In this document: positions 7,363 through 25,393 of the stretch, piece after piece | Position numbering within the stretch: position 1 is the first letter of the stretch | Layout: each line of letters begins with the position of its first letter | From: Hyalangium minutum | Lineage (GTDB): Bacteria > Myxococcota > Myxococcia > Myxococcales > Myxococcaceae | Length of the DNA: 25,393 nucleotides | NCBI RefSeq assembly: GCF_000737315.1 | Contig: NZ_JMCB01000003.1 | Location: forward strand, 1 to 25,393 | Reading direction: 5' to 3' | The notes under the pieces: model-generated | Database searches by the model: none | The model's input: only the letters and a program-made list of their open reading frames with translations | What the model was told of the DNA's origin: nothing | Translations under genes and position numbers: made by a program

Positions 7363-7423
7363 CCAGTTGCCTGGCGCCGCGGCCCGGAAGGGTCGCGCTC
7401 CGGGCAGACCTTACGAGGCCATC

Positions 7424-8095: not shown

Positions 8096-8449
8096 ATGGC
8101 TACAATCGATCCGCGCATCAAGAGGAAGAACCGCATCCGCAAGAAGCTCTCGGGTACCACCGAGCGCCCGCGGCTCACGGTTTACAAGAGCCTCAAGCAC
8201 ATCTACGCCCAGGTGGTGGATGACTCCACCGGCAAGACGCTGGCGTATGCCTCGTCCCTGTCCAAGGAGCTCAAGGGCCAGGATGAGGGCGACAAGAAGG
8301 CCGACGCCAAGCGCGTGGGCAAGCTGATCGCCGAGAAGTGCAAGGCGGCCAACGTCGGGGCGGTGGTGTTCGACCGCAACGGCTTCCCTTATCACGGGCG
8401 CATCGCCGCCGTGGCTGACGCCGCGCGCGAGGCCGGGCTGAAGTTCTAA
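8096..8449 (+). CDS. rplR: 50S ribosomal protein L18
   Basis: 117 aa, ...[31 protein letters not shown]..., canonical L18. Confidence 0.94.
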
Positions 8450-8473
8450 GAAATTCGAAAGGAAGCTCTCCAA

Positions 8474-8995
8474 GTGGCAACTCCGATCAATCCGAACGAC
8501 CTGGACCTCACCGACCGCGTGGTGAACATCAACCGCGTGGCCAAGGTGGTGAAGGGTGGCCGCCGGTTCTCGTTCGCCGCCCTCGTGGTGGTGGGTGATG
8601 GCAATGGCCATGTGGGCGTGGGCCTGGGCAAGGCCAACGAGGTCCCCGAGGCCATCCGCAAGGGTGGCGAGAACGCCAAGAAGAACCTGTTCCGCGTCCC
8701 GCTGTCGGGTCACACCATCCCGCACGAGGTGCTCGGGCACTTCGGCGCTGGGTGGGTGCTCCTGAAGCCGGCCAGCGAGGGTACGGGCGTCATCGCCGGT
8801 GGTGCGGTGCGCGCGGTCCTCGAGGCGGCGGGCATCCGCAACATCCTGACCAAGAGCCAGGGCTCGCGGAACCCCCACAACGTGCTGAAGGCCACGGTGG
8901 CGGGCCTGAAGCGGCTGCGCTCGGCCGAGCAGGTTTCCCGGCTGCGCGGTAAGGACGTCGAGACGGCCAAGCTGGCCGGTGAGGCGAGGACCTAG
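8474..8995 (+). CDS. rpsE: 30S ribosomal protein S5
   Basis: 173 aa, ...[40 protein letters not shown]..., S5 dsRBD. GTG start with RBS AAAGGAAG upstream. Confidence 0.95.
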
Positions 8996-8997
8996 TC

Positions 8998-9258
8998 ATG
9001 GCGCTCAAGGTGAAGCTGGTGAAGAGCTCCGCTGGCTCTTCCAAGGAGATGCTGGACACCATCCGCGGGCTCGGGCTGAAGAAGTTCGGCGACGAGCGCC
9101 TGCTCAAGGACACCCCGTCCAACCGGGGCCTGGTGTTCAAGGTGAAGCACCTGGTCTCCAGTGAGACGGTGAGCCAGGAGGCTCCGGCCCCCAAGCGCCG
9201 GAAGCCCCGTAAGATCATCGTCCGTGACCGCGCCCGGGCCAAGGCGGCCAAGAGCTAG
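8998..9258 (+). CDS. rpmD: 50S ribosomal protein L30 with about 25-aa basic C-terminal extension
   Basis: The N-terminal approximately 60 aa, [53 protein letters not shown], match L30. The tail ...[25 protein letters not shown] is extra. Confidence 0.88.
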
Positions 9259-9315
9259 GACGGATTCGTTCCGCGGGCCCCGCGAACCGGGGCTGCCGCG
9301 CATGAGGACTTCAAG

Positions 9316-9846
9316 ATGTCGACGACTCTCAACAACCTGAAGCGGCCGCATAACTCGTGGCACCGCAAGAAGCGCGTGGGCCGCGGGCAGGGTAGCGGTC
9401 TGGGCAAGACGGCAGGCCGTGGTGGCAAGGGCCAGAAGGCTCGTTCCGGCAACATGCGGTTCGAGGGCTTCGAGGGCGGTCAGAGCCCCCTGCAGCGCCG
9501 GCTGCCGAAGTTCGGCTTCATCTCGCCCAACCGCGTCATCTACGCGGTGGTGAACCTGGCGGACCTCGAGCACGCGTTCGAGGCGGGCGCCACGGTGGAC
9601 GAGGCCGCGCTGAAGGCCAAGGGCCTGGTCAAGGGCCGCTATGACGGCGTGAAGGTGCTCGGCCAGGGCGAGCTCTCCAAGAAGCTCACCCTCAAGGTGC
9701 ACAAGCTGTCCGGTAAGGCCCAGGAGGCCATCCAGAAGGCGGGCGGCGCAGTTGAGGTGCTCCCCCTGGTGGCGCACAAGCCTGAGTCTGCCTCGAAGGC
9801 TCACTCTGGCAAGGGCGTCAAGGCCCCCAAGCAGACGAACGCCTAG
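9316..9846 (+). CDS. rplO: 50S ribosomal protein L15 (C-terminally extended)
   Basis: 176 aa, [45 protein letters not shown]... The Lys/Ala-rich tail beyond about residue 150 is extra. Confidence 0.93.
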
Positions 9847-9974
9847 CTGTGCTGGGCCGCGCTTCACTTTGGGTGGTGCGCGCCGGTTCGCTTGTGTAGG
9901 CTCACGCGCCCCTCTCCTTCGTGGATTGGGGCGCTGTCGTTCTATCAGGACCTTTCGAAGGGGATGGCTCCGTC

Positions 9975-11321
9975 GTGGCACTGAATGCCTTCGCCAACAT
10001 TTTCCGCATCGCGGAGCTGCGCAACCGGCTCGCGTACACGCTGGTGCTGCTGGCGGTCTACCGCCTGGGCATCTTCATCAACACGCCGGGCGTGGATCGC
10101 GCGGCGATGAACGCGTTCATGGACGCCCAGAAACAGTCGGGCGGCCTGGTGTCGCTGTTCAACCTGTTCTCCGGTGGCGCGCTGGAGCAGATGTCCATCT
10201 TCGGCCTGGGCATCATGCCGTACGTGTCCGCCTCCATCATCATGCAGCTGCTGGCGGTGGTCATCCCCAGCCTGGAGCGGCTGCAGAAGGAGGGCGCGGC
10301 GGGACGGCAGAAGATCAACCAGTACACTCGCTACGGCTCCATCGTCCTGTCCGTCATCCAGGGCATCGGTATCTCCCGCTGGCTGGCCTCGCTGGGCCGC
10401 AGCGACGCGGGGCAGACCGGCTTCAACCAGATCGTCGTGCCGGATGACAGCGTGTGGTTCACCTTCATGACGGTGATCAGCCTTACCGCTGGCACGGCCT
10501 TCATCATGTGGCTGGGCGAGCGCATCACCGAGCGCGGCATCGGCAACGGCATCTCGCTCATCATCTTCGCCGGCATCATCGCGGGCCTGGTGCCCGCCTC
10601 CAAGCAGCTGTTCGACCTGACGTCGCAGGGCGCCCTCGAGCCTGCGATGCTGGTGGCGCTGGGCGTCTTCATGCTCGTGGTCATCGCGGTCGTGGTCTAC
10701 GTGGAGCGAGGCATGCGGCGCATCCCGGTCCAGTACGCCAAGCGCATGGCGGGGCGGCGGATGTTCGCGGGCCAGGCCACTTACTTTCCGATGAAGGTGA
10801 ACAGCGCGGGCGTGATCCCGCCTATCTTCGCCGGCGCGCTGCTGTCCTTCCCGGCCACGCTGGGCACCTGGTTCCCCTTCCTGAACACGTTCCGCCAGGG
10901 CCTCGAGGGCAACCCGTGGCTCTATGACGGCCTGTTCGTCCTGCTCATCATCTTCTTCGCCTACTTCTACACCGCGCTGACGTTCCGGCCGGATGACGTG
11001 GCCGACAACATCAAGAAGCAGGGTGGCTACATCCCCGGCATCCGCCCGGGCCGCCAGACGGCAGACTTCATCGAGCGCGTGCTCAACCGCATTACCTTCG
11101 GCGGCGCCGTCTACCTGGCCATCATCTGCGTCATCCCCTCCATCATCACCAACACGCTGGGGGTGCGCTTCCAGTTCGGCGGCACCGCGCTGCTGATCGT
11201 CGTCGGCGTGGCGCTGGACACAGTGCAGCAGATCGAGGGCCACCTCATCAGCCGCAACTACGAGGGCTTCGCCGGTCCGCGCGGCCCGCGCATCCGTGGC
11301 CGGGTCCGGGTGGCGGCCTAG
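9975..11321 (+). CDS. secY: Preprotein translocase subunit SecY
   Basis: Multi-TM protein. (M)ALNAFANIFRIAELRNRLAYTLVLLAVYRLGIFINTPGVD matches the SecY N-terminal consensus, so the GTG at 9975 is preferred over the track's upstream GTG at 9921, which would add 18 aa. I could not reconcile my manual nucleotide count near the stop (off by 1 nt), so the track's end coordinate is kept. Confidence 0.92.
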   Translation: MALNAFANIFRIAELRNRLAYTLVLLAVYRLGIFINTPGVDRAAMNAFMDAQKQSGGLVSLFNLFSGGALEQMSIFGLGIMPYVSASIIMQLLAVVIPSLERLQKEGAAGRQKINQYTRYGSIVLSVIQGIGISRWLASLGRSDAGQTGFNQIVVPDDSVWFTFMTVISLTAGTAFIMWLGERITERGIGNGISLIIFAGIIAGLVPASKQLFDLTSQGALEPAMLVALGVFMLVVIAVVVYVERGMRRIPVQYAKRMAGRRMFAGQATYFPMKVNSAGVIPPIFAGALLSFPATLGTWFPFLNTFRQGLEGNPWLYDGLFVLLIIFFAYFYTALTFRPDDVADNIKKQGGYIPGIRPGRQTADFIERVLNRITFGGAVYLAIICVIPSIITNTLGVRFQFGGTALLIVVGVALDTVQQIEGHLISRNYEGFAGPRGPRIRGRVRVAA

Positions 11322-11340
11322 CCGGTGAGTTTGTTTCACG

Positions 11341-11374
11341 GACGCCTCTCTCCGGATGGCCGGGGAGGGGCGTC
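11341..11374 (+). other. 15-bp stem / 4-nt loop RNA hairpin (GACGCCUCUCUCCGG-AUGG-CCGGGGAGGGGCGUC, two G-U pairs) 20 nt after the secY stop
   Basis: Inverted repeat read from the sequence. It is followed by TCGTCGTTC and has no clean U-tract. Confidence 0.45.
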
Positions 11375-11473
11375 TCGTCGTTCAGGGATAGTCAGTCGTG
11401 CACGGGGAGCGAGTTCGAGGGTTGGCGCCGCGGGCTTCCCGTGCGTTCCTTCGAAGGAGCTGAAGAGGAGCAC

Positions 11474-12121
11474 ATGAACCTGATCCTGTTGGGCCCGCCG
11501 AACGCGGGAAAGGGTACCCAGGCGAAGAATCTGTTCCGGGACTTCCAGATCCCGCAGATCTCCACCGGGGACATCCTCCGCAAGGCCGTGAAGGATGGGA
11601 CGGAGATGGGCAAGATTGCCGGGCCGCTGATGGCCTCGGGCGCCTATGTCCCAGATGACATCGTCATTGGCATCGTCGAGGAGCGGCTCAAGCAGCCGGA
11701 CTGCGCCAACGGCTTCGTGCTGGATGGCTTCCCTCGCACCACTCCCCAGGCGGATGCCCTGGAGCGGATGCTGGCGAAGAACGGCAAGAAGATCGAGGCC
11801 GTGGTCTCGCTCGAGGTGCCGCACGAGAAGCTCATCGAGCGCGGCTCCGGCCGGCGCTCCTGCCCGGTGGATGGCAGCGTCTACCACGTCATCCAGAGCC
11901 CTCCGAAGCGGGCCGGGTTCTGCGACAAGTGCGGCGCGGGCCTTGTCCAGCGTGACGACGATCACCCCGAGGTGATCGAGAAGCGGCTCAAGAAGTACGA
12001 CGCCGAGACGTCGCCGCTGAAGGACTACTACGCCAAGAAGGGCTTGCTGAAGACCATCGACGGCGTGGGGCCCGCCGAGGGTATCTACGCGGAGATCAAG
12101 GCCGCCATCGGGAAGCCCTGA
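11474..12121 (+). CDS. adk: Adenylate kinase (Cys4 zinc-lid type)
   Basis: MNLILLGPPNAGKGTQA... P-loop. The lid carries CPVDGSVYH...CDKCG. The ATG at 11474 fits the family N-terminus. The track's 11441 start adds 11 aa. Confidence 0.93.
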   Translation: MNLILLGPPNAGKGTQAKNLFRDFQIPQISTGDILRKAVKDGTEMGKIAGPLMASGAYVPDDIVIGIVEERLKQPDCANGFVLDGFPRTTPQADALERMLAKNGKKIEAVVSLEVPHEKLIERGSGRRSCPVDGSVYHVIQSPPKRAGFCDKCGAGLVQRDDDHPEVIEKRLKKYDAETSPLKDYYAKKGLLKTIDGVGPAEGIYAEIKAAIGKP

Positions 12122-12135
12122 GCGTGTAGATCCCC

Positions 12136-12894
12136 ATGGCCCAAGTCGAGATCAAGAGCGCGGACGAGATCGCCCTCATGCGTGAGGCCGGCCGAATCGT
12201 CTGCGAGATCCTCGACGAGCTCGAGAAGGCCGTGGCCCCGGGGGTTACCACCTGGGACCTGGATGCCCTGGCCGAGAAGCTCATCTACGCCAAGGGAGCC
12301 AAGCCAGCGTTCAAGGGCTACCTCGGCTTCCCGAGCTGCCTGTGTGCGTCCATCAACGAGGAAGTCGTACACGGCATTCCCTCCAAGAAGCGGAAGCTGG
12401 CGGCGGGCGACCTGATGAAGCTGGACTTCGGGGTGGTGTACCGGGGGTTCTTCGGGGACTCGGCGCGCACCGTGCCGGTGGGGAAGGTGGGGCAGGAGGC
12501 CCTGGCGCTCGTTAATGTCACCCGGCAGTCCCTGCAGAAGGGGATTGCCGCGGCGGTACCGGGCAACCGGATCGGCGACATCAGCCACGCGATCCAGAGC
12601 TACGTCGAGGCGCATGGGTATTCCGTGGTGCGCAGCTTCACGGGGCATGGGATCGGCCGCAAGCTCCACGAGAAGCCAGAGGTGCCCAACTACGGTTCGC
12701 CGGGGTCGGGCATGAAGCTCCGTTCGGGAATGACCATCGCCATCGAGCCCATGGTCAACCTGGGAACCGATGAGGTAGGCCTCCTTGAGGACGACTGGAC
12801 GGCGGTGACGCTCGACTCCAAGCTTTCCGCCCACTTCGAACATACCGTGCTGATCACGGATCATGGCCCCGAGGTGCTCACCCGGAGGTCCTAA
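12136..12894 (+). CDS. map: Methionine aminopeptidase type I
   Basis: 252 aa, MAQVEIKSADEIALMREAGRIV..., with metal-binding His/Asp/Glu pattern and the GHGIG motif. Confidence 0.93.
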   Translation: MAQVEIKSADEIALMREAGRIVCEILDELEKAVAPGVTTWDLDALAEKLIYAKGAKPAFKGYLGFPSCLCASINEEVVHGIPSKKRKLAAGDLMKLDFGVVYRGFFGDSARTVPVGKVGQEALALVNVTRQSLQKGIAAAVPGNRIGDISHAIQSYVEAHGYSVVRSFTGHGIGRKLHEKPEVPNYGSPGSGMKLRSGMTIAIEPMVNLGTDEVGLLEDDWTAVTLDSKLSAHFEHTVLITDHGPEVLTRRS

Positions 12895-13052
12895 GAGGGC
12901 CTGCCCCGGCGAGAAATACGTTGTTATCATGAGGGGTTGGTAGAAGTTTGGAGCGGGCGCTTCTGGGTACTTGCCACTTCGGGACCAAAGTGCTATCCCG
13001 CCGCGCTTCCAAGAGTTACTGAGTTACTGGTGGTCCGGAAGAGGGTTTTCGA

Positions 13053-13271
13053 TTGCCGAAGGACGATTCGATCGAAGTTGAGGGGACCGTGATGGAGCCC
13101 CTGCCCAACGCGATGTTCCGCGTGGTGCTAGACAATGGCCACAAGGTGCTCGCGCACATCTCCGGCAAGATGCGGATGCATTTCATCCGTATTCTGCCGG
13201 GCGATAAGGTCAAGGTGGAGCTGTCCCCCTATGACCTGACCCGTGGACGGATCACCTACCGGGCGAAGTAA
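13053..13271 (+). CDS. infA: Translation initiation factor IF-1
   Basis: 72 aa, (M)[61 protein letters not shown].... TTG start with RBS GGAAGAGGG 7-8 nt upstream. Confidence 0.93.
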
Positions 13272-13343
13272 TCGGGCCCGCCCGCTCTTCAGGCGGGCAG
13301 CCCTTGCAGACTTTTCTAATTCACGAAGGAAGGAAGTAGCGCC

Positions 13344-13460
13344 ATGAAGGTTCGGGCGTCCGTCAAGAAGATTTGCGACAAGTGCAAGGTGATCCGCCGC
13401 AAGGGGATCGTCCGCGTCATCTGCGCCTCCAACCCGCGGCACAAGCAGCGCCAGGGCTAA
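13344..13460 (+). CDS. rpmJ: 50S ribosomal protein L36 (zinc-ribbon type). Too short to appear in the ORF track.
   Basis: Manual translation gives [38 protein letters not shown] (38 aa), a C-x2-C-x12-C-x4-H zinc ribbon. RBS GGAAGGAAG is upstream. Confidence 0.87.
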
Positions 13461-13509
13461 CGGGCAACCGTTGGCTCCAGACCAACTCCACTGAAGAAGG
13501 AATGTAACG

Positions 13510-13896
13510 ATGGCTCGTATCGCCGGTGTCGATCTCCCGCCTGCCAAGCGCGCGGTGATCTCGCTCCAGTACATCTACGGGATCGGTAACAAGACCGCCC
13601 ATGAGATCTGCGCTCACGCGGGGATCGCGCTCGAGACCCGGACCAAGGACCTGACCGATGATCAGGCCCGTAAGATCCGTGAGTACATTGAGGCCAACCT
13701 CAAGGTTGAGGGTGACCTGCGGCGCGAGGTGACGATGAACATCAAGCGTCTGATGGACCTGGGCTGCTACCGGGGCCTCCGTCACCGCAAGGGCCTGCCC
13801 GTCCGCGGCCAGCGCACCCACACCAACGCGCGCACCCGCAAGGGTCCGAAGCGCCGCATCGTTCGCGCCAAGCCGGCTGCTCCGGCGGGCCGCTAG
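13510..13896 (+). CDS. rpsM: 30S ribosomal protein S13
   Basis: 128 aa, [30 protein letters not shown]..., canonical S13. Confidence 0.95.
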
Positions 13897-13970
13897 ACGT
13901 TCCTCCCCACTGCGCCAGCGCCGCCTAGGCTCTGGCGTCGATCATCTACTCCTCAGGAGCTCCGACTCTC

Positions 13971-14417
13971 ATGGCTGAAGAAGTCCAGACCCCTGCCGCC
14001 GCCACGACGACCCCCGAGGGTGGTGGCGAGACCGCTGCGGCCAAGAAGGCCAAGCGCAAGGGCAAGAAGAACATCCTCAACGGCGTGGTCCACATCCAGT
14101 CCACGTTCAACAACACCATCATCACGATCACGGACGTGTCCGGGAACGTGATCTCGTGGTCCTCGGCGGGCGCCCGTGGCTTCAAGGGCAGCCGCAAGTC
14201 GACCCCGTTCGCCGCGCAGGTTGCCGCCGGTGACGCCGCCGCCAAGGCCATGGAGCACGGCCTGAAGACGGTGACGGTGCTGGTGAAGGGCCCTGGCGCT
14301 GGCCGCGAGTCCGCGCTGCGCGCCCTGGCCGCCGCTGGCCTGAAGATCACCCTGATCCGCGACGTGACGCCCATCCCGCACAACGGCTGCCGTCAGCCGA
14401 AGCGCCGCCGCGTCTAA
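13971..14417 (+). CDS. rpsK: 30S ribosomal protein S11 (about 20-aa Ala/Thr/Lys-rich N-terminal extension)
   Basis: ...[30 protein letters not shown]..., S11 core. Confidence 0.93.
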
Positions 14418-14480
14418 TTCCCTCATCCGGGTCCTGCCTGAGAGGGCAGGGCCCTAGACCACCTCTGAAGGAGAAGTTCC

Positions 14481-15107
14481 TTGGCTCGTTACACCGCCAG
14501 CGCCTGCCGCATCTGCCGGCGCGAGAACCTGAAGATGTACCTTAAGGGCGATCGCTGCTACACGGACAAGTGTGCCATCGAGCGCCGCCCGTATCCCCCC
14601 GGCCAGCACGGCCAGGGCCGCGTGAAGTTCTCCGGCTACGGCGTGCAGCTGCGCGAGAAGCAGAAGGTCAAGCGCATGTACGGCCTGCTCGAGAGCCAGT
14701 TCCGCGGCTACTACCACCGCGCGTCCGCGGCCAAGGGCAAGACGGGTGAGAACCTCCTGCAGCAGCTGGAGCTCCGCCTGGACAACGTGGTGTTCCGCAT
14801 GGGCTTCGCGGACACGCGCAACGAGGCTCGCCAGCTGGTGCGTCACGGCCACTTCAAGGTGAACGGCAAGCGGGTGAACATCCCCTCGTTCGCGGTGAAG
14901 CCGGGCAGCGCCGTCGAGGTGGCCGAGAAGAGCCGCAAGGTTCTGCGCATCTCCGAGGCTCTGGAGACTGTGGACCGCCGCGGCGTGCCGCAGTGGATCG
15001 ACCTGGACAAGAAGGCCTTCAAGGGGACCGTGAAGACGGTGCCGAACCGCGAGGACCTGACCATGCCGATCCAGGAGCAGCTCATCGTGGAGCTCTACTC
15101 CAAGTAG
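14481..15107 (+). CDS. rpsD: 30S ribosomal protein S4 (zinc-finger type, Cys4 near N-terminus)
   Basis: 208 aa, (M)[30 protein letters not shown].... TTG start with RBS GAAGGAG 7 nt upstream. Confidence 0.95.
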
Positions 15108-15293
15108 GCCTGAGGCCCCTCAAGGGCCTGATTGCCTGCTTCAGGCGCCCTGGCGGCCTCCGCCGGGGCGTCGTGCTTCTTTCTGGCCGGTTCGTCCGGC
15201 CTCGGTTAATCGTCGTACCCCCCGCGTCTCCATCCTCCTGCCGTTCTGGCGGGTAAGTCGGTGGTGGAGTGCGCTTCGAGAGGTAGCAACACC

Positions 15294-16340
<1,047 letters not shown>

Positions 16341-16360
16341 TTGTTTCCGTAGGACCTCGG

Positions 16361-16393
16361 CCCGCGCCGTGACACGGCTTCACGCGGCGCGGG
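16361..16393 (+). other. 12-bp GC stem hairpin (CCCGCGCCGTGA-N7-TCACGCGGCGCGGG, 2-nt bulge) 20 nt after the rpoA stop. A second short G/C hairpin and an AT-rich CATAAAAG patch follow.
   Basis: Inverted repeat read from the sequence. No U-tract. Confidence 0.4.
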
Positions 16394-16523
16394 AAGAGGG
16401 GGCCCCTCCCCATAAAAGTGGGGGCCTATTGGCAATAGCGGACCTCGGTGTCGAGTCCGCTCTTCCCACCCGGTACCTGATACGGCCGGTGTGGTGGAGC
16501 CGAGAGGCTCCGGAGTCACGCTC

Positions 16524-16949
16524 ATGCGTCACAAGGTTGGACAGAGGAAGCTTCACCGCACCACGCCGCACCGGCTCGCGATGCTCAACAACATGGTCAC
16601 CTCGCTGCTCGAGCACGAGGCGATCCGCACCACCGTCCCCAAGGCCAAGGAGGCCCGGAAGATGGCGGAGCGGATCATCACGCTCGGCAAGCGCGGCGGG
16701 CTGGCCAATGTTCGTCTGGCTGCCCGAATCGTGAAGGACAAGGACGTCCTCCAGAAGGTCTTCAGCACCTACAAGGACCGCTACGCCAGCCGTAAGGGCG
16801 GCTACACCCGCATCATCAAGCTCGGCTTCCGCCGGGGTGACGCTGCGGAGATGGCCCTCCTGGAGTTGGTGGACCGTCCCGCCAAGGCTGCCCCCGCCGA
16901 GGGTGGTGAGGCCGAGGGTGAGGCGAAGACCGAGGAGAGCAAGGGCTAA
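16524..16949 (+). CDS. rplQ: 50S ribosomal protein L17 (with about 25-aa acidic Ala/Glu-rich C-terminal tail)
   Basis: [37 protein letters not shown]... is the L17 N-terminus. The ATG at 16524 is preferred over the track's 16491. Confidence 0.93.
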
Positions 16950-16985
16950 TCGCCCGGCTCTCACGCCGACGCCGTCACGGAGCGT

Positions 16986-17019
16986 CCTTCCCGCGAGGGA
17001 AGGGCGCTTTCGTGTTTCT
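16986..17019 (+). terminator. Rho-independent terminator closing the alpha operon: CCTTCCC-GCGA-GGGAAGG, then GCGCTTTCGTGTTTCTG
   Basis: 7-bp stem with a GNRA tetraloop and a T-rich tail, 37 nt after the rplQ stop. It lies between convergent genes. Confidence 0.6.
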
Positions 17020-17032: not shown

Positions 17033-17701
17033 CTACTCGCCGACGGCCTGGCCGTTCTTCACCAGCTCCGCCTTGCCGTCGTTCGTCTTCATCTCCGCGC
17101 TGACGAAGCGCTCGTCGCCGGGCATGGGCCCCGTGGGGCCCAGCAGGTTCTTGGGCGTGAGCGTGACGTCGCCCCCGGGAGCCACTTTGTCCACGATGGC
17201 CTTGTACTTGCCGTTCACCGTGAAGATGACGTTCTCCCACGGATCGTCATCCGTGTTGCTCACCAGCAGCGCTGGCGACGCCTTGGGGCGATCCGCGTTC
17301 GGCAGCACGATGACTCGCGCACCCAGGTCCGCCGTCTTCACGCCTTGGCCCGGGCAGGCGATCACGATGCTCACCAGCGAGATGAAGGCCCAGCCTCCGA
17401 TGATCCCCGCTTTCGCCTTGAAGAAGCGATCCGAGGACCGGAAGTCCTGGAACATCTCCTTCAGCATCGACAGGCCGTTGAGGAACTGGTTGGACGCCTC
17501 CGAGGCGATCCGCTGGCCTACCTGACCTTCGGCCTTCTTCCCCGCCGGGCCGGCGCGCGCCGCGCTGAGCGCGCGCATGTTCGGGTTGGTCGGCACACGC
17601 GGCATTCCGGGACTGGAGACCGTGCGCTGAGGAGTCGCCGCCGAGTCCGAGGACCCCGCCGGCGGAGCATTGTGATCAGGCACCTTGCGACCGTCGCTCA
17701 T
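17033..17701 (-). CDS. Hypothetical bitopic membrane protein. About 100-aa Pro/Ser/Ala-rich cytoplasmic N-terminus, one TM helix (IIGGWAFISLVSIVIAC), about 100-aa C-terminal extracytoplasmic domain.
   Basis: 222-aa ORF. It is the last gene of a minus-strand run and starts 36 nt after the TPR gene stop. I recognise no family. Confidence 0.55.
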   Translation of the reverse strand: MSDGRKVPDHNAPPAGSSDSAATPQRTVSSPGMPRVPTNPNMRALSAARAGPAGKKAEGQVGQRIASEASNQFLNGLSMLKEMFQDFRSSDRFFKAKAGIIGGWAFISLVSIVIACPGQGVKTADLGARVIVLPNADRPKASPALLVSNTDDDPWENVIFTVNGKYKAIVDKVAPGGDVTLTPKNLLGPTGPMPGDERFVSAEMKTNDGKAELVKNGQAVGE

Positions 17702-17737
17702 CGGACAGCCAGTGTAGAGGCGCCGGGCGCCCGGTGG

Positions 17738-19131: not shown

Positions 19132-19926
19132 TCAGGAGGTCTTCGAGGCAGGGGGGGACGGTTCGCGGAAGCCTTCGTGCCCCGCGGCGGCGACAGCGTC
19201 CTCGAGGTCTCCGCCCTTGCCGCCGAGTTCCAGGCTCTGGGCGATGATCACTTCCCGGACAGCCCGGGCCAGGCCCTCGCGGTCGTTCGCGGCAAAGGCC
19301 GTGGTGTCGATGGGCTTGCCGATCTTCACGTGGACGGGGCCGGGGACGATGTTCCAGGAGTTCTTGGGCATGATGGAGCCCGTGCCTTCGACGGTGACAG
19401 GACAGATGGGCACGCGGGCCTCAAGTGCCAGGGCGAACGGCCCCTTCTTGAAGGGGAGGATCCGCCCGTCCGGCGAGCGGGTGCCCTCCGGGTACAGGAA
19501 GATGCTGGTGCCGCTGCGGATCTTCTGCCCGGCGCGCTGGAGCGAGGTGATCGCCGCCTGCCGGTTGGAGCGGTTGACGAAGACGTGCCCCGCCACCCAC
19601 AGATACCAGCCGATGAAGGGCACCCACCCCAGCTGGCTCTTGGCCACGTAGCGGAAGGGCACCGGCACCGTGACGAAGTGCGCCGGGATGTCCAGGGTCG
19701 ACTGATGGTTGGAGACGTAGATGGTCGGCCGCTTGGGATCGACGTTCTCCTGGCCGTGCACCACCAGACGGGCACCGCCGGCCCACAGCAGCACAGGCGA
19801 CCACAGGTGGCGGCAGATCCACACCGAGGCGTCCCCACCGAGCAACAGAGCGGTCAGGGAGGCGAACGGGAACAGGAACGCCGTCCACGCGCCCGCAACG
19901 AACATGCAGAAGAGTTTACGTGGCAT
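19132..19926 (-). CDS. plsC: 1-acyl-sn-glycerol-3-phosphate acyltransferase (LPAAT)
   Basis: 264 aa with acyltransferase motif I NHQSTLD (HX4D), motif III FLYPEGTRS and an N-terminal hydrophobic anchor. Its stop abuts the TPR gene start. Confidence 0.85.
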   Translation of the reverse strand: MPRKLFCMFVAGAWTAFLFPFASLTALLLGGDASVWICRHLWSPVLLWAGGARLVVHGQENVDPKRPTIYVSNHQSTLDIPAHFVTVPVPFRYVAKSQLGWVPFIGWYLWVAGHVFVNRSNRQAAITSLQRAGQKIRSGTSIFLYPEGTRSPDGRILPFKKGPFALALEARVPICPVTVEGTGSIMPKNSWNIVPGPVHVKIGKPIDTTAFAANDREGLARAVREVIIAQSLELGGKGGDLEDAVAAAGHEGFREPSPPASKTS

Positions 19927-20004
19927 ACGAGGCTTGAGAGTGTGAGCCTGCCATACCCAGGGCCCTCGCGCGGCTTCGTCGAGAGGGTCTTTTCGGACGG
20001 CCTT

Positions 20005-20063
20005 CCTGCCGCCCCGGAGGGGAGGCAGGTTCTAACACGCCCAGTCCATGCCTTTGGGACTGG
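20005..20063. promoter_or_regulatory. Divergent regulatory region between plsC and the kinase gene. It contains inverted repeats CCTGCC-N13-GGCAGG (20005-20029) and CCAGTCC-N9-GGACTGG (20041-20063).
   Basis: Palindromes read from the sequence in the 173-nt spacer between divergent start codons. Confidence 0.35.
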
Positions 20064-20099
20064 TATGCGCCGCCCGGTGCGGCTACAAGCAGGGGTGGC

Positions 20100-20714
20100 G
20101 TGGCCAGGAAAAAGTTCATCGCCGTCGCGGGTAATATTGGCGCCGGGAAGACGGAGCTCACCTCGTTCCTCTGCCGGAAGTACGGCTTGACGCCGTACTT
20201 CGAGCCGAACGACCAGAACCCCTACCTGGCCGACTTTTACAAGGACATGAAGAAGTGGGCCTTCCGCTCACAGATCTTCTTTTTGACCCATAAGTTCCGG
20301 CTGCACCGCGAGCTGGAGCGTCAGCCCGGAACGGTATTGCAGGACCGGACCATCTACGAGGACGCGGAGATCTTCGCCAAGAACCTTCACCGGCAGCGCT
20401 TCATCGACAAGCGGGACTGGCAGATGTACCGGGAGCTGTACGAGACGGTGGCCCAGGTGCTCACCCCGCCGGATCTGATGATCTACCTGCGCTGCCCCGT
20501 GCAGACCCTCAAGGAGCGCATCCGCCTGCGAGGCCGCGTCATGGAGAAGGACATCCCCACGCTCTACCTCAAGCGCCTGAACGCCCTCTATGAGGAGTGG
20601 TTCAGCCACTACAAGATGTCGCCCGTGCTCGTGCTGCCGACCGACAAGCTCGACTACCTCACCAACCTGGTGGATCGCGTGGATCTGTTCCGCCAGATCG
20701 AGAAGCACCTGTGA
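20100..20714 (+). CDS. Deoxynucleoside kinase family protein (dAK/dGK/dCK-like P-loop kinase)
   Basis: 204 aa, (M)ARKKFIAVAGNIGAGKTELTSFL...FEPNDQNPYL...QDRTIYEDAEIF..., with P-loop, ERS-like and lid regions typical of the dNK family. GTG start. Confidence 0.82.
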   Translation: MARKKFIAVAGNIGAGKTELTSFLCRKYGLTPYFEPNDQNPYLADFYKDMKKWAFRSQIFFLTHKFRLHRELERQPGTVLQDRTIYEDAEIFAKNLHRQRFIDKRDWQMYRELYETVAQVLTPPDLMIYLRCPVQTLKERIRLRGRVMEKDIPTLYLKRLNALYEEWFSHYKMSPVLVLPTDKLDYLTNLVDRVDLFRQIEKHL

Positions 20715-21886
20715 AGGAGGTCTACGTCCTCGCCGTCGAGTCGTCTGCTCCCATCCCGTTGGAGGAGCTGCGCCCCGCGTTCGAGTCGGAAGACGTGCGC
20801 TTCGCGATGCTGGAGGGCGGGAACGGTTTCTCCGTCCATGCTGAGGGCACTCAGGTCGAGGTGCGCTTCGACACCCAGCGGCCCACGAAGGGCGTGGATC
20901 CCCGCCTGCTCACTGGCAGCGAGGAGGCTCAGAAGGCGTTCCAGCGCACCCAGGGCTATTACTGGCTCTCCGTGGAGCCGGGCTCCGGGCCTCAGCCCAC
21001 CGTGCCCGTTTTCGAGGCCCTGTGGTGCGCGCGCACGCTGATGGAGCAGACGCAGGGCGTGCTGCTGGACCTCACCGCGTACAAGCTGCACGACGTGGCG
21101 GACGTGGTGGAGATCACCGAGCTGGACTTCGACATTCGCGACCACGTCAACCTGCACGCCGTGGCCGCCATCGAGGGCGATACGCCCCTGTGGGTGCACT
21201 CGCACGGCATGGAGAAGTTCGGCACCCGGGACTTGGAGATCTTCCACCTGGGCGAGGAGGACCTGCTGGCCGCGGAGATGTTCCTCCATGAGCTGTGCAC
21301 GGACATGGCCTTCGGCCAGGGCCCCGGCGCTCGCAAGGAAGTGCATACCAGCGAGGGCCAATCCTTCCGGCTCGTGCCCTCCGAGGAGGCCCGGGTGAAC
21401 CTGCTCGGCGTCCCGCTGGAGACCTTCGAGGGCCACGAGGCCCTGTTCCTCAGCGTCGTGTCCCCGCTGGGCCGGCACAACACCGCCGAGTTGCTGCGCC
21501 CCTACCGCGAGCGCTTCGTCCCCGAGCCCGAGGAGCGCACCGAGTCCCTCCGGCTCGAGGCCCAGGCCCTGCTGCCTGCCTTCAAGGCCCGCTTCGGCCG
21601 CAAGGGGCTCATGGAGCCGCTCACCTTCCTGGTGCGAGCGCCCTTCGAGACCCACCCCGAGGGCCAGGCCGTCGAGGAGAACCTCTGGCTGGAGGTGGTG
21701 GCCTGGGAAGAGGGCACCGTGGTGGGCAAGCTCGTGGATGGCGCCGTCCACACCACCGAGTGGCGCAAGGGCGCTCACGTGGAGGTGGATGAGGAGCACA
21801 TCAACGCGCTCGCCATCAGCCACGAGGGCCGCACGCTGGACGAGGAAGAGATCCGCGCGCTGCTCATTGCCGAACGGCCCATGTAG
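20711..21886 (+). CDS. Uncharacterised 391-aa protein, translationally coupled to the kinase (GTGA overlap). The C-terminal approximately 100 aa resemble the DUF2314 (YegJ-like) pattern ENLWLEVVAWEEGTVVGKLVDGAVHTTEWRKGAHVEVDEEHINALAI. N-terminal domain possibly DUF4026-like.
   Basis: Continuous high-GC3 ORF. The GTG at 20711 overlaps the kinase TGA. The ORF track's upstream extension would lie out of frame inside the kinase. The family assignment is from memory of Pfam patterns and is not verified. Confidence 0.65.
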   Translation: MKEVYVLAVESSAPIPLEELRPAFESEDVRFAMLEGGNGFSVHAEGTQVEVRFDTQRPTKGVDPRLLTGSEEAQKAFQRTQGYYWLSVEPGSGPQPTVPVFEALWCARTLMEQTQGVLLDLTAYKLHDVADVVEITELDFDIRDHVNLHAVAAIEGDTPLWVHSHGMEKFGTRDLEIFHLGEEDLLAAEMFLHELCTDMAFGQGPGARKEVHTSEGQSFRLVPSEEARVNLLGVPLETFEGHEALFLSVVSPLGRHNTAELLRPYRERFVPEPEERTESLRLEAQALLPAFKARFGRKGLMEPLTFLVRAPFETHPEGQAVEENLWLEVVAWEEGTVVGKLVDGAVHTTEWRKGAHVEVDEEHINALAISHEGRTLDEEEIRALLIAERPM

Positions 21887-21898
21887 GCTCCGCGCTCC

Positions 21899-23608
21899 AT
21901 GCCAGCCCTGCTGCTGCTCTCCGGTCCCTCCGCCGGCCGCCGCTATGAGGTGGTTTCGGACGTCTCCATTGGCCGCAGCCCGTCGTGCGAGATCCAGCTC
22001 GACGACGACAAGGTGTCCCGGCGGCACGCCCACATCTTCTTGAGCGAAGGGCAGATGCGCGTCCGGGATCTGGGCTCGCGCAACGGCACGCTCGTCAACG
22101 GAGAGCGCCTCCAGGGCGAGGCGCGCTTGGTGCCCGGCGATCGCATCCAGGTGGGAGAGACGACCGCCCTCTACGAGCCGCTCACCCAGGCCGCCTTGAC
22201 GGAGCAGGCGCCGCTCGATGCCCGCCATGTCCCCATCGCCGAGGTACTGCCGCACGTGGGGCCCGAGGCGGCTCTGCTGTCCGCTGGGGTGGCCCTGCTG
22301 GGCGCCACCAGCGAGGCCATGGTGCTGCGGCGGTTGGTGGACGAGGCCCTTCATGCCTTGAGCGCGGATCGGGCCGCGGCGCTGCTCGGAGGGCAGGGTG
22401 GGTTGCTCACCGCGGCGGTGTCAGGCACGGCCTCTGTGGAGGTTCCGCGCGTCATGGCGAGCCTGGCGCTGGAGCAGAAGGAGGTCGTTTCCACGGCCAA
22501 TGCCCTCTGTGCTCCCTTGGTGGCCGCCGGAGGCATGCCGTTCGGACTGCTGTATGTGGCGTGTGATGAGCCGCGCTTCAGTGCGAAGGATGCGGGCATC
22601 GTGGCCGCGCTGGGGCGCATGGGCGGCGAGGCGTACACCGCCATGCACTCCCGGATGGAGGAAGAGCAGGCCCCCGTTCAGCTCGTCGGCACGTCCCGGC
22701 CGTTCCGCCGCATGGTGGAGCAGGCCCGGCGCGCGGCTGCCAGCGCCGCTCCCGTGGTCATCTCCGGCGCCCCCGGAAGTGGGAAGAGCCTCCTGGCCCG
22801 GTTCATCCATGTGCACTCCCCTCGGGCGCTGGGGCCGCTGGTGGCGGTGGACTGCCGTCTGCCGGGGCCTGCCGTGGAGGAGTTCCTCTTTGGCCGCGCG
22901 AGTGCTCCCGGGCTTCCGCCGCGCTCGTCCGCGCTCCTGCGCGCGGATGGAGGGACGCTGCTGCTCCAGCACGTGGAGGGGCTCTCGGGCGCCACGGTCG
23001 AGCGGCTGGTGCGGCTGCTCGCGCGCAAGGTGGCTCCGGCCCGGCAAGGAGGCGAGGAGCCTGTCAATCTGCGCCTCATCGCCACTGCGATCGAGCCCAC
23101 GCAGCTCCTGGCCGCCAAGGGCGGGCTGGATCCCGCCCTGGCCATGGCGCTGTCCGGACTGGAGATCGAGGTGCCGCCCCTGCGCGAGCGCCGCGCCGAT
23201 CTGAGCGCCTTGTTCGAGCACTTCGCCGCCCGGGGCGCCCAAGCCACCCGGAAGCCACCTCCGGTGCTCAGCCCGGGGGCCAAGCGCCTCCTCGTGGACT
23301 ACGCGTGGCCACAGAACGTGAGCGAGCTGAAGCTGGTGGCAGAGCGGCTCGGGCGGCTGTACTCCGGCCGCGAGGTGCACGCGCTGCGCTTGCCTCCGGA
23401 GATCCAGGAGGGCTCGGCGGAGGCCAAGCCTCGCAGCCTGCAGGAGATGGTCGAACGCCTGGAGCGGGAGGCCATCGTCGAGGCGCTCCAGTCCGCGGGA
23501 GGCCGGAAGATCCGCGCGGCCGAGCAGCTCGGCATCAGCCGCCCCACGCTGGACAAGAAGATCGAGGAGTACGCCATCCAGTTGGAGAAGCCACGGCGGC
23601 GACAGTGA
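21899..23608 (+). CDS. FHA-GAF-sigma54-interaction(AAA+)-Fis HTH regulator whose ATPase motifs are degenerate (pseudo-enhancer-binding protein)
   Basis: N-terminus is FHA (GR...SRRHAHI...NGTLVNG). The middle is GAF-like. The AAA+ module has Walker A GAPGSGKS, HVHSPRA and PPLRERR conserved, but ESELFGHEKGAFTGA becomes EEFLFGRASAPGLPPRS, Walker B GTLFLDEIG becomes GTLLLQHVEG, and FREDLxxRL becomes GLDPALAMAL. C-terminal Fis-type HTH is GGRKIRAAEQLGISRPTLDKKIEEY. Confidence 0.8.
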   Translation: MPALLLLSGPSAGRRYEVVSDVSIGRSPSCEIQLDDDKVSRRHAHIFLSEGQMRVRDLGSRNGTLVNGERLQGEARLVPGDRIQVGETTALYEPLTQAALTEQAPLDARHVPIAEVLPHVGPEAALLSAGVALLGATSEAMVLRRLVDEALHALSADRAAALLGGQGGLLTAAVSGTASVEVPRVMASLALEQKEVVSTANALCAPLVAAGGMPFGLLYVACDEPRFSAKDAGIVAALGRMGGEAYTAMHSRMEEEQAPVQLVGTSRPFRRMVEQARRAAASAAPVVISGAPGSGKSLLARFIHVHSPRALGPLVAVDCRLPGPAVEEFLFGRASAPGLPPRSSALLRADGGTLLLQHVEGLSGATVERLVRLLARKVAPARQGGEEPVNLRLIATAIEPTQLLAAKGGLDPALAMALSGLEIEVPPLRERRADLSALFEHFAARGAQATRKPPPVLSPGAKRLLVDYAWPQNVSELKLVAERLGRLYSGREVHALRLPPEIQEGSAEAKPRSLQEMVERLEREAIVEALQSAGGRKIRAAEQLGISRPTLDKKIEEYAIQLEKPRRRQ

Positions 23609-23649
23609 GGGCACCATCCCGCTTGTCCCCCCGTGCCCCCGCAGCGTAG

Positions 23650-24564
23650 ATGCCCCCCATGAGCTTCCGTTACTCCGACGAGGTGCGTCGCGCCCTGGAC
23701 ACGAAGGCGCCGCTGGTGGCGCTCGAGACGAGCGTGGTGGCCCAAGGCCTGCCTTACCCGGACAACCTCCGCGCCGCGCGCGCCTGCGAGGAGGCCGTTC
23801 GCAGCGCCGGTGCCGTGCCCGCTCCCATCGCCGTGGTGGATGGCGAGGTGTGGATCGGTCTCGAGGAGGCCGCCATGCTCCGGCTCGCCGAGGGCAAGGA
23901 GAAGCTGATGAAGCTCGGCTCGCGCGATCTGCCCGTGGCCATCGCCTTGAAGGCCTCGGGGGGCACCACCGTGAGCGCCACCTGTGAGCTGGCCGCCGCC
24001 GCCGGCATCCGCGTCTTCGCCACCGGCGGCCTGGGCGGTGTCCACCGGGGCGTCAGCGAGCACTGGGACATCTCCCAGGACATTGGCGCGCTGGCCCGCT
24101 ACCCCGTCGCCGTGGTGTGCGCCGGCGCCAAGTCCATCCTGGATCTGCCCAAGACGATGGAGGCCCTGGAGACCGCGAGCGTGCCCGTCATCGGCGTGCG
24201 CACCAGCGAGCTCCCATCCTTTTATAGCCGCAGCTCGGGCATGCCGCTGGAGCACCGGGTCGAGGACGCCGTCACGGCCGCTCGCATCGTCCGCGCCCGG
24301 GGCGAGCTGGGGCAGGGGGGGCTCGTCTTCGCGCTTCCGCCACCCGACGAGGCGGCCCTGCCTCGGGAGGACGTGGAGCGGCACATCGCCTCCGCGCTCG
24401 CCGAGGCCGAGCGCCAAAGTATTCGAGGCAAGGCCGTCACCCCGTTCCTGCTCGGGGACATGGCCCGGCGCACGGGAGGCCAGAGCCTGAAGGCCAACCT
24501 GGCCCTCCTGGCCAACAACTCGCGCTTCGCCGGAGAGCTTGCCGTCGCTTTGACGCGGGGATGA
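23650..24564 (+). CDS. psuG: Pseudouridine-5'-phosphate glycosidase (IndA/YeiN family)
   Basis: 304 aa, collinear with PsuG: ...PLVALETSVVAQGLPYP...GGTTVSATCELAAAAGIRVFATGGLGGVHRG...VVCAGAKSILDL...GKAVTPFLL...SLKANLALLANN. The ATG at 23659 is an alternative start. Confidence 0.85.
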   Translation: MPPMSFRYSDEVRRALDTKAPLVALETSVVAQGLPYPDNLRAARACEEAVRSAGAVPAPIAVVDGEVWIGLEEAAMLRLAEGKEKLMKLGSRDLPVAIALKASGGTTVSATCELAAAAGIRVFATGGLGGVHRGVSEHWDISQDIGALARYPVAVVCAGAKSILDLPKTMEALETASVPVIGVRTSELPSFYSRSSGMPLEHRVEDAVTAARIVRARGELGQGGLVFALPPPDEAALPREDVERHIASALAEAERQSIRGKAVTPFLLGDMARRTGGQSLKANLALLANNSRFAGELAVALTRG

Positions 24565-24577
24565 CATGACCGGAGGG

Positions 24578-24599
24578 GCAGCTTCACGAAGCTGCTTTT
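24578..24599 (+). terminator. Intrinsic terminator GCAGCTTC-AC-GAAGCTGC followed by TTTT, 14 nt after the psuG stop
   Basis: Perfect 8-bp inverted repeat immediately followed by T4. Confidence 0.6.
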
Positions 24600-24628
24600 G
24601 AGGTGGCATGCTCTAGGGAGGCCCCTGC

Positions 24629-25393
24629 ATGCCAGCACCTTCCATTCCGGCGGATGAAGCCCAGCGCCTCAAGGCTTTGTGGGATCTGTGCGTGCTGGAC
24701 ACCCCGCCGGAGGAGCGGTTCGACCGCATCGTCCGGATGGCGGTACGGCTCTTCCAGGTGCCCATCGCCTTGGTGTCGCTGGTGGACAAGGACCGGCAGT
24801 GGTTCAAGGCCCGGTACGGGATCGCGGAGCTGTCGGGGCCTCGCAACACCTCGTTCTGCGGCCACGCCATTCTCCATTCCGAGATGCTGGTGGTGCCGGA
24901 CGCCACCCTGGACCCTCGCTTCCTGGACAACCCGAATGTCCTGGACGCGCCCCACGTCCGCTTCTACGCGGGCCAGCCGCTGAGGGCGCCCAACGGAAGG
25001 CTTGTCGGGACGCTGTGCGTGGTCGACTACAAGACCCGCGAATTCAGTGAGGAGGATCGTCGCGCCTTGAGGGACTTGTCCGCGTGGACGGAGCTGGAGC
25101 TGTCCATGAAGGCGCTCCAGGAGGCCCAGGCCGCCGTCAAGCAGCTGGATCACTTCTTCGAGCTGTCGGCGGACATGCTCAGCATCACCAACCTCGAGAG
25201 CCGGCTGCTGCGCTGCAGCGTCTCCTGGAGCCGGACCTTGGGCTACTCCACCACGGAGCTGAGGGACATCCGGTTGCGCGAGCTGTTCCACCCGGAGGAT
25301 CTCCCCCAGGTGCTCGAGGCTCGACAGCGGGCCATCGAGGGCAGGCCACTCCCCAGTGTCGAGTGCCGCATTCGCGACCGCGCTGGCACCTGG
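24629..25393 (+). CDS. GAF-PAS sensor protein, N-terminal 255 aa (3' end beyond window). Absent from the ORF track because no stop lies in the window.
   Basis: Manual translation from the ATG at 24629 (RBS GGGAGG 7 nt upstream) gives MPAPSIPADEAQRLKALWDLCVLDTPPEERFDRIVRMAVRLFQVPIALVSLVDKDRQWFKARYGI...CGHAILHSEMLVVPDATLDPRF...RFYAGQPLRAPNGRLVGTLCVVDYKTREFSEEDRRAL... (GAF), then ...LDHFFELSADMLSITNLESRLLRCSVSWSRTLGYSTTELRDIRLRELFHPEDL... (PAS). Codon GC3 is high in this frame. The track's ORFs here (24603..24983 plus strand, 24584..25291 minus strand) are Arg/Ser/Trp-rich wrong-frame artefacts. Confidence 0.75.
   Translation, partial: MPAPSIPADEAQRLKALWDLCVLDTPPEERFDRIVRMAVRLFQVPIALVSLVDKDRQWFKARYGIAELSGPRNTSFCGHAILHSEMLVVPDATLDPRFLDNPNVLDAPHVRFYAGQPLRAPNGRLVGTLCVVDYKTREFSEEDRRALRDLSAWTELELSMKALQEAQAAVKQLDHFFELSADMLSITNLESRLLRCSVSWSRTLGYSTTELRDIRLRELFHPEDLPQVLEARQRAIEGRPLPSVECRIRDRAGTW

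Follow-up and report, generated by a model that had tools for sequence, protein, structure and literature searches.

The regulator gene and its domains

The window considered here is the whole of a 25,393-nucleotide stretch of DNA from Hyalangium minutum (RefSeq assembly GCF_000737315.1, contig NZ_JMCB01000003.1, positions 1 to 25,393 of the forward strand). Our subject is a gene near its right end that encodes a regulator of 569 amino acids (aa), built around a degenerate AAA+ core of the enhancer-binding protein (EBP) type. An earlier note, made from the letters of this DNA, had read the domain order as FHA, GAF, sigma54-interaction domain and Fis-type helix-turn-helix (HTH), and this order was borne out by Pfam. 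The gene and its domains are as follows.

21899–23608, plus strand: regulator gene, 569-aa FHA-GAF-(degenerate AAA+)-lid-HTH protein (open reading frame with an ATG start, Pfam, 120 orthologs, AlphaFold2 model)
21899–22180, plus strand: FHA domain, aa 1–94 (Pfam FHA at residues 22–86, E=1.8e-21; all-beta over residues 3–94 in the AlphaFold2 model)
22235–22666, plus strand: GAF-like domain, aa 113–256 (Pfam GAF at residues 142–240, E=9e-4; alpha/beta in the AlphaFold2 model)
22682–23182, plus strand: AAA+ alpha/beta core of the EBP type, aa 262–428 (fold kept, catalytic residues gone)
23183–23431, plus strand: AAA+ lid, aa 429–511 (Pfam AAA_lid_14, E=8e-17), which holds PPLRERR and sensor II
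23450–23572, plus strand: Fis-type HTH, aa 518–558 (Pfam HTH_8, E=2.8e-13)

All orthologs of the regulator have the N-terminus MPALLLL[ST]GP in common, which speaks for the start codon (ATG at 21899). Residue counts given below refer to 121 sequences, the regulator included. In the FHA domain, the phospho-Thr-binding residues G25-R26, S40, H43 and N62-G63 are invariant, R26, S40, H43 and N62 being present in 121/121 sequences. The GAF-like domain is more divergent: the Pfam GAF model (PF01590) scores 20.2 bits in the regulator, under the gathering cutoff of 22.4, and matches 69 of 75 orthologs at E<=0.01 (2.6e-7 for the best of them). The secondary structure of this region in the AlphaFold2 model is compatible with the GAF alpha/beta fold, and the domain closes with a long helix (aa 229–256) that runs into the AAA+ core. 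The core itself is matched by Sigma54_activat (PF00158) over residues 262–419 with E=2.3e-17 and merely 63.6 bits. The most conserved stretch of the whole protein, LGISRPTLDKKI, lies in the Fis-type HTH, where LGISRPTLDKK is invariant in 75 orthologs and 13 distant cluster representatives.

Public records label the orthologs of the regulator as “sigma-54-dependent Fis family transcriptional regulator.” The best scores obtained with NCBIfam equivalog models (DhaR, AtoC, NtrC, NtrX, ZraR, TyrR, PspF, and others) were 98–160 bits, against cutoffs of 440–800. Judged by such scores, the regulator is not orthologous to any named atypical EBP, that is, an EBP homolog without GAFTGA, and it is claimed by no curated family.

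Motif states of the AAA+ domain

The motif register was taken from a HMMER alignment to five solved EBPs, namely ZraR (1ojl), NtrC1 (4l4u), NifA, NtrX, and FleQ. The following segments were compared.

22766–22789, plus strand: Walker A GAPGSGKS, aa 290–297, retained
22886–22927, plus strand: L1 loop region LFGRASAPGLPPRS, aa 330–343, a Pro-rich conserved loop in place of GAFTGA
22952–22981, plus strand: Walker B position GTLLLQHVEG, aa 352–361, DE replaced by QH
23033–23065, plus strand: L2 (pre-sensor-I) insertion APARQGGEEPV, aa 379–389, conserved in the family and unlike canonical EBPs
23072–23101, plus strand: sensor-I strand RLIATAIEPT, aa 392–401, polar T/N pair replaced by A/I
23120–23152, plus strand: arginine-finger region GGLDPALAMAL, aa 408–418, Arg replaced by Asp
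23306–23332, plus strand: sensor II WPQNVSELK, aa 470–478, Arg replaced by Ser

Residue by residue, the changes in the regulator fall in register with the canonical EBPs, so that the motifs have been replaced and not shifted. The canonical ELFGHEKGAFTGA of the L1 loop corresponds to FLFGRASAPGLPP in the regulator, in which GAFTGA has given way to SAPGLPP. GAFTGA occurs in 0/121 orthologs, and PG.PP is conserved in its place (P337 in 100, G338 in 119, P340 in 121, and P341 in 120). At Walker B, the canonical GGTLFLDEI (LFLDEI) is aligned with GGTLLLQHV (LLLQHV); the Asp is absent from all 121 sequences, which have Q, H, L, R or K there, as is the Glu, replaced by H in 102. The Asn of ..NCAA.., which we take to be the glutamate-switch residue (N64 in PspF numbering), is D318 (VDCR) in the regulator. 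Sensor I reads RLIATAI, compared with the canonical RLIAATH/N, and its position 398 varies among orthologs. The arginine-finger segment GRFRQDLYYRL of canonical EBPs has become GGLDPALAMAL, with D or E at the finger position in 117/121 orthologs. In the L2 insertion, G384 and E386 are invariant, and A379, P380, G385, E387, P388, and V389 are conserved at >=90% (75 sequences).

Other parts of the domain have been preserved. HVHSPRA (aa 304–310) and the PPLRERR of PPLRERRAD (aa 426–434) are retained in the regulator, and the three Gly of Walker A are present in 121/121 orthologs; the Lys of Walker A is conserved in 105 and replaced by R in 16, and this position is followed by S or T in 81/121. 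Thus, the retention of Walker A, HxHSPRA and PPLRERR and the losses of GAFTGA, the Walker B DE and the arginine finger, all of which the earlier note had reported, were confirmed by the alignment, and every string that it quoted was found where it had been placed; the note's own proviso, that the motifs might be present in a shifted position, is answered by the register against ZraR, NtrC1, NifA, NtrX, and FleQ. The loss of the sensor-II Arg, which it had added to this list, holds for the regulator (WPQNVSELK, compared with the canonical WPGNIRELE) and not for the family: the Arg is kept in 95/121 orthologs, and Ser is found in the regulator and three other orthologs. By this alignment, the change in sensor II is the only one of the motif losses that is specific to the lineage of the window.

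In canonical EBPs, GAFTGA contacts region I of sigma-54, and Walker B, the arginine finger and the sensors drive hydrolysis. These roles of the GAFTGA contact, Walker B, the arginine finger, and the sensors are established knowledge (PMC3162934, PMC6158489, PMC7175178). Since GAFTGA, the Walker B DE, the arginine finger, and the sensors are gone, canonical sigma-54 activation by the regulator is very unlikely. The prediction of the earlier note, that the protein would probably neither hydrolyse ATP nor engage sigma-54 in the canonical manner, follows from the established mechanism of EBPs.

Age of the family and selection

A search of 5.8 billion proteins yielded 120 full-length relatives with 57–98% identity, a length of 557–579 aa, and an intact frame, all of them from Myxococcaceae/Archangiaceae. 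The closest are those of Hyalangium (87–89%), followed by Myxococcus, Corallococcus, Pyxidicoccus, Archangium, Cystobacter, Vitiosangium, and Aggregicoccus; the ortholog in M. xanthus DK1622 is ABF85993.1. When 1.84 billion cluster representatives were scanned exhaustively with HMMER, full-length relatives (330–620 bits) reached down to approximately 41% identity. The motif losses are shared by distant clusters with approximately 35–56% identity, and those at approximately 35–39% often have Arg in place of the Walker A Lys. Canonical EBPs with GAFTGA, DE, and FRxDL turned up only at scores of approximately 225 bits or lower. Several of these canonical relatives also begin with an FHA domain, and they are the nearest non-degenerate relatives of the regulator (approximately 35–39% identity).

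Neighbour joining of the AAA+ region placed the regulator in a clade of 28 sequences, none of which has the Walker B DE in the correct position; one of the 28 was flagged solely for a shifted “DE” string, and long-branch attraction is possible in this tree. The ratio of nonsynonymous to synonymous substitution rates (dN/dS), calculated by the Nei-Gojobori method against seven orthologs of the Hyalangium clade, was 0.19–0.31 for the whole gene and 0.15–0.25 for the AAA+ core, the latter being among the lowest values of all domains. The rebuilt L1 (FGR.S.PG.PP..SALLRADGG) and L2 (APARQGGEEPV) rank among the best conserved segments of the alignment, a pattern expected of a repurposed surface and not of drift. 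On the sequence comparisons made here, the regulator belongs to an old, apparently monophyletic family that is subject to purifying selection and is not a one-off dead copy.

The very low Sigma54_activat score would be compatible with a decaying EBP relic without a function. However, a relic or pseudogene was ruled out by dN/dS values of 0.15–0.31 in every domain, the intact frame, the constant length, the conservation of the replaced loops, and the confident predicted fold, and we consider this explanation extremely improbable. As the FHA domain, the GAF-like domain, and the HTH have been kept intact under selection, the most suitable reading is that the protein is a regulator that integrates signals and binds DNA. 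In our judgement, it is probably a relative of the atypical EBPs that acts independently of sigma-54 and without hydrolysis, binds DNA, and probably controls its own nucleoside-salvage operon.

Two side observations were made in the course of the searches. FHA-containing EBP-like clusters with approximately 35–39% identity (representatives P0156–P0164 and P0173–P0176) are also degenerate, with a shortened or deleted L1 and Arg in place of the Walker A Lys; therefore, dead FHA-EBPs may comprise at least two lineages. In addition, assemblies named “Comamonas sp. KCTC 72670” (L015, BNCN01000021.1) and “Comamonas sp. JC664” (P0126) contain a Myxococcus-type locus with full synteny. Their copies are approximately 62% identical to the regulator, a value equal to that of Myxococcus orthologs, and both assemblies are probably mislabelled or contaminated.

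Predicted fold

An AlphaFold2 model built from 75 sequences had a predicted local distance difference test (pLDDT) value of 88 and a predicted TM-score (pTM) of 0.70. In Foldseek comparisons, the AAA+ core matched FleQ, FlrC, PspF, LuxO, and NtrC1 with target-normalised TM-scores of 0.85–0.89 and a root-mean-square deviation of about 2.4 Å. The best E-value was obtained with the atypical EBP NtrX, and VpsR was also among the matches. In the model, the EBP-type AAA+ fold is intact despite the lost catalytic residues. For NtrX, crystal structures with ATP and ADP exist (5m7n and 5m7p), which provide a precedent for nucleotide binding without hydrolysis among the atypical EBPs.

The retention of the AAA+ fold and of most of the ring-forming core bears on an explanation already put forward in the earlier note, in which the regulator is an anti-activator: its dead AAA+ domain would join active FHA-type EBPs in mixed rings and lower their activity, and phospho-Thr binding would control the recruitment. 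Hetero-oligomeric EBPs do exist, as in HrpR/HrpS and FleQ/FleT, and the nearest non-degenerate relatives, at approximately 35–39% identity, are canonical EBPs that contain an FHA domain. However, a pure poison subunit would have no need of an invariant DNA-binding HTH, and the acidic residue at the trans-acting arginine finger, together with the rebuilt L1 and L2, implies inter-subunit surfaces unlike those of active EBPs. Nor would this explanation account for the close and ancient association with a kinase gene that is described below. No specific support for the anti-activator emerged, and we regard it as quite unlikely.

Genomic neighbourhood of the regulator

The first 17,000 nucleotides of the window (1–17000) comprise a supercluster of ribosomal-protein genes, secY, adk, map, rpsD, rpoA, and rplQ, followed by minus-strand genes for TPR and acyltransferase proteins. 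The plus-strand cluster that includes the regulator sits just downstream of the ribosomal-protein supercluster, and the rpoA-rplQ neighbourhood recurs at a distant locus, L082. An open reading frame of 234 aa at 17033–17737 on the minus strand, between rplQ and the TPR gene, has a coding-like GC content at third codon positions and no Pfam match. The features that surround the regulator gene are listed below.

19927–20099, strand not assigned: divergent intergenic region of 173 bp upstream of the kinase gene, a candidate promoter/operator
20100–20714, plus strand: deoxynucleoside kinase (dNK) gene (Pfam dNK, E=9e-53; matches to dNK and dGK structures in the PDB)
20711–21886, plus strand: DUF2314/DUF4026_C-like gene, the GTG start of which overlaps the TGA stop of dNK (GTGA) and which ends 12 nt before the regulator ATG
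23650–24564, plus strand: psuG-like gene (Indigoidine_A/pseudouridine-5'-phosphate glycosidase; Pfam, E=3e-111), 41 nt after the regulator
24617–25393, plus strand: start of a gene for a GAF-PAS signalling protein that continues past the window end

The genes of the cluster are on one strand and tightly packed, with the GTGA overlap followed by gaps of 12 and 41 nt, and the overlap between the dNK stop and the start of the DUF2314-like gene suggests translational coupling. No relative of the DUF2314-like protein was found in the PDB, nor any NCBIfam model for it.

Synteny was compared in a sample of 80 genome loci. The dNK gene lies upstream of the regulator in 76 of these, and in 74 of them both dNK and the DUF2314-like gene occur at a fixed spacing; two of the 76 are cut by contig ends, yet have both genes. 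In most loci, psuG follows the regulator, directly or at a distance of 1–5 kb. In the distant relatives L081–L083 (41–46% identity), dNK is located immediately upstream of the regulator, with gaps of 4–42 nt, whereas the other neighbours differ: the DUF2314-like gene is absent, and in one of the three psuG overlaps the stop codon of the regulator. Because dNK adjoins the regulator in these otherwise different neighbourhoods, the dNK-regulator pair forms the conserved core of the cluster. The link to nucleoside metabolism that the earlier note had suggested is thus strongly backed by the conserved synteny with dNK and PsuG.

Further observations concern the composition of the cluster. Loci L038, L039, L040, and L080, from metagenome-assembled genomes (MAGs), constitute a small clade in which a GT2 glycosyltransferase gene replaces the dNK and DUF2314-like genes and psuG is adjacent downstream. 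The kinase that accompanies the gene of the PsuG family in the cluster is of the dNK family and not a PfkB-type pseudouridine kinase, and the “dNK” might be a candidate non-orthologous nucleoside kinase feeding PsuG. An anti-phage defence context was considered and ruled out, as PADLOC gave merely generic AAA+/HTH (RtcR-like) and P-loop matches.

The same adjacency admits another explanation, namely that the regulator is a post-translational partner, the FHA domain of which binds a phospho-Thr, for example on the dNK or the DUF2314-like protein, and thereby controls the activity or localisation of the enzyme rather than transcription. The gene adjacency at 4–42-nt gaps that is kept throughout the family would agree with this, as would the invariant binding residues of the FHA domain and the conserved new surfaces of L1 and L2. 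However, the HTH is the most conserved segment of the protein, and the DUF2314-like gene is absent near the distant members. We therefore consider such a role unlikely.

The region upstream of dNK

Conservation of cis-elements was examined in an alignment of 71 upstream regions. A proximal block, ...CTGGTG.GCGCCGC.CGG.GGGGTTACAAGCA.GGGTGGCGTG, is conserved across genera. In the window, the cross-genus block is located at 20070–20099 and ends in TACAAG, a -10-like hexamer 10 nt before the GTG of dNK; a hexamer of this type (TACAAG, TAGAAG, or TAGATC) is found 8–13 nt before the start codon, the distant loci included. This arrangement hints that the transcript may be nearly leaderless and may start from a promoter of non-consensus type, which might depend on an activator. 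A simple scan detected no consensus sigma-70 promoter upstream of dNK, and a single terminator-like match was located inside dNK. No riboswitch or leader RNA was found, there being no Rfam match at E<=1 in 19800–24800. A perfect 7-bp inverted repeat, CCAGTCC-N9-GGACTGG, is present at 20041–20063 and is private to the lineage of the window, and at a similar distance L081 and L083 have unrelated direct repeats of 8 bp, arranged in tandem with a period of 10 bp.

A sigma-54-like element (TGGCAC-N5-TTGC, with up to 2 mismatches) was absent from 19927–20099, and the whole window contained 11 such matches, compared with 28 expected by chance. This result bears on the explanation in which the regulator is still a sigma-54 activator, working through non-canonical loops or with an ATPase borrowed in trans. 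Such a role is implied by the public annotation and would suit the heavy reliance of myxobacteria on sigma-54, and a mutant of the Caulobacter NtrC, which lacks GAFTGA, can raise the expression of sigma-54 genes (PMC12421884). Against it, no -24/-12 element was found upstream of the operon, GAFTGA and the hydrolysis residues are absent from all 121 orthologs (with the exception of the sensor-II Arg, kept in 95), and substitutions in GAFTGA abolish activation in the EBPs tested (PMC3162934). Taken together, these data make a sigma-54 activator very improbable.

Proposed function of the regulator

The atypical, sigma-54-independent regulator that we favour would operate as follows. The FHA domain would read a phospho-Thr mark set by a Ser/Thr kinase, the GAF domain may bind a small ligand, and the Fis-type HTH would bind DNA. 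The AAA+ domain would most likely serve as a scaffold for oligomerisation and signal transmission; its P-loop may still bind nucleotide, and the rebuilt L1 and L2 would present new conserved surfaces that suggest a new partner. The regulator gene would be co-transcribed with the dNK gene, and the protein would most likely act on its own nucleoside-salvage operon, at a promoter not dependent on sigma-54. The choice of this operon as the target is based on synteny, since the regulator almost always adjoins dNK and usually lies near psuG.

Among the three mechanisms proposed in the earlier note, a phospho-Thr-controlled repressor, an anti-activator, and a nucleotide-binding switch, the best fit is provided by a DNA-binding regulator because the HTH is invariant. 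The nucleotide switch is possible and has been weakened by the replacement of the Walker A Lys with Arg (16/121 orthologs and about half of the distant clusters) and by the loss of the Mg-binding S/T in a third of the sequences. The three Gly and the basic K/R of the P-loop, which are kept, speak for nucleotide binding; the acidic residues of Walker B, which are gone in all 121 orthologs, speak against it. From these residues, the chances that the P-loop senses nucleotides appear roughly even.

Several points weigh against the favoured interpretation. Four loci from Myxococcaceae MAGs (L038, L039, L040, L080) lack an upstream dNK, and adjacency to dNK could mirror co-expression and not regulation. 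Upstream of dNK, no conserved operator or inverted repeat shared among genera was found; since no such operator or dyad could be defined there, it is synteny that argues for autoregulation. Variation in Walker A makes nucleotide binding uncertain: its Lys is Arg in 16/121 orthologs and in many of the distant clusters, and a third of the orthologs have lost the Mg-binding S/T. The GAFTGA-less Caulobacter NtrC, when mutated, still influences sigma-54 genes (PMC12421884), and for this reason motif loss is not absolute proof of sigma-54 independence. Finally, our search found no literature on the family or on ABF85993.1; two surveys of M. xanthus EBPs from the Kaiser laboratory were outside this search, and a prior mention is possible.

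A more specific version of the proposal combines its parts into a pseudo-ATPase sensor and transcription factor. The P-loop with its [KR] Walker A, the GAF domain, or both would read the nucleotide or nucleoside pool, the FHA domain would integrate Ser/Thr-kinase signalling, and L1 and L2 would contact a new partner, such as the sigma-70 RNA polymerase or dNK, so that the output of an operon for deoxynucleoside salvage and pseudouridine catabolism would be set. We offer this version tentatively and with low confidence. If true, it would represent a myxobacterial counterpart of NrdR-like nucleotide-pool control on an EBP chassis.

Comparison with known enhancer-binding proteins

Atypical EBPs, which lack GAFTGA, often have a defective Walker B, and act at sigma-70 promoters, constitute a recognised class, the members of which include TyrR and DhaR of E. 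coli, PhhR of P. putida, HupR of R. capsulatus, HsfA of M. xanthus, NtrX of B. abortus, VpsR of V. cholerae, and the Caulobacter NtrC (PMC6158489, PMC3162934, PMC12421884). The statement of the earlier note that a member with a dead ATPase, linked to nucleoside metabolism genes, is new territory was therefore too strong, as GAFTGA-less EBP paralogs acting with sigma-70 were already known. The regulator has the features by which the class is defined (PMC6158489, PMC3162934), that is, an EBP-homologous AAA+ core and an HTH, with GAFTGA absent. As in the other members, the HTH is C-terminal to an EBP-type AAA+ core in which GAFTGA is absent or defective. Some atypical EBPs have non-consensus Walker motifs, such as the ND in place of DE in VpsR, and they work as activators or repressors without sigma-54 (PMC6158489, PMC3162934, PMC12421884). 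Unlike these proteins, the inputs of which are REC or ACT/PAS domains, the family of the regulator has FHA and GAF-like domains. It is also more degenerate: the losses comprise Walker B, the Asn of the glutamate switch, sensor I, and the arginine finger, and the finger position has become acidic; in addition, new conserved loops stand in place of L1 and L2, and the family is confined to myxobacteria and linked to dNK.

FHA-domain enhancer-binding proteins of Myxococcus xanthus were reportedly described by Jelsbak, Givskov and Kaiser in 2005 (cited in PMC12288465). The regulator resembles them in having an N-terminal FHA domain, an EBP core, and a Fis-type HTH, in its myxobacterial origin, and in the presumed input from a Ser/Thr kinase. 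However, the canonical FHA-EBPs keep GAFTGA, DE, and FRxDL and activate sigma-54 promoters, whereas the family of the regulator has none of these motifs. A GAF-like domain joined to the AAA+ core by a long helix recalls the group III GAF-EBPs such as NifA, NorR, FhlA, and PexR of M. xanthus, in which the GAF domain can gate the activity of the core (PMC12754779). Unlike the regulator, which is predicted to have no ATPase activity to gate and which has an extra FHA domain ahead of GAF, those proteins are active ATPases with GAFTGA. Identity of the regulator with PexR was ruled out, since PexR, a canonical GAF-EBP, has both GAFTGA and Walker B (PMC12754779).

In summary, the idea of a pseudo-EBP is already known, and it is this family that appears to be undescribed. 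The features that appear to be new are the FHA and GAF inputs, the loss of the full catalytic set with a charge reversal at the arginine finger, the new L1 and L2, and the near-obligate adjacency to dNK.

Significance for myxobacterial regulation

For a specialist, another EBP without GAFTGA will be little surprise; what gives an experimental entry point is how complete the degeneration is, together with the repurposed loops and the link to dNK. The near-universal pairing with dNK offers a concrete and testable target, which can be approached through the ortholog ABF85993.1 of M. xanthus, a genetically tractable relative. The “sigma-54-dependent” label on the family of the regulator inflates the counts of myxobacterial EBPs and misassigns regulons. 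For M. xanthus, Francke et al. gave 51 true EBPs compared with 53 annotated. More generally, the family indicates that an AAA+ transcription motor can lose its catalytic residues and its contact with sigma-54, and still be maintained by selection over a long period, with new loops. In the myxobacteria, the regulator could connect Ser/Thr-kinase signalling with nucleotide salvage.

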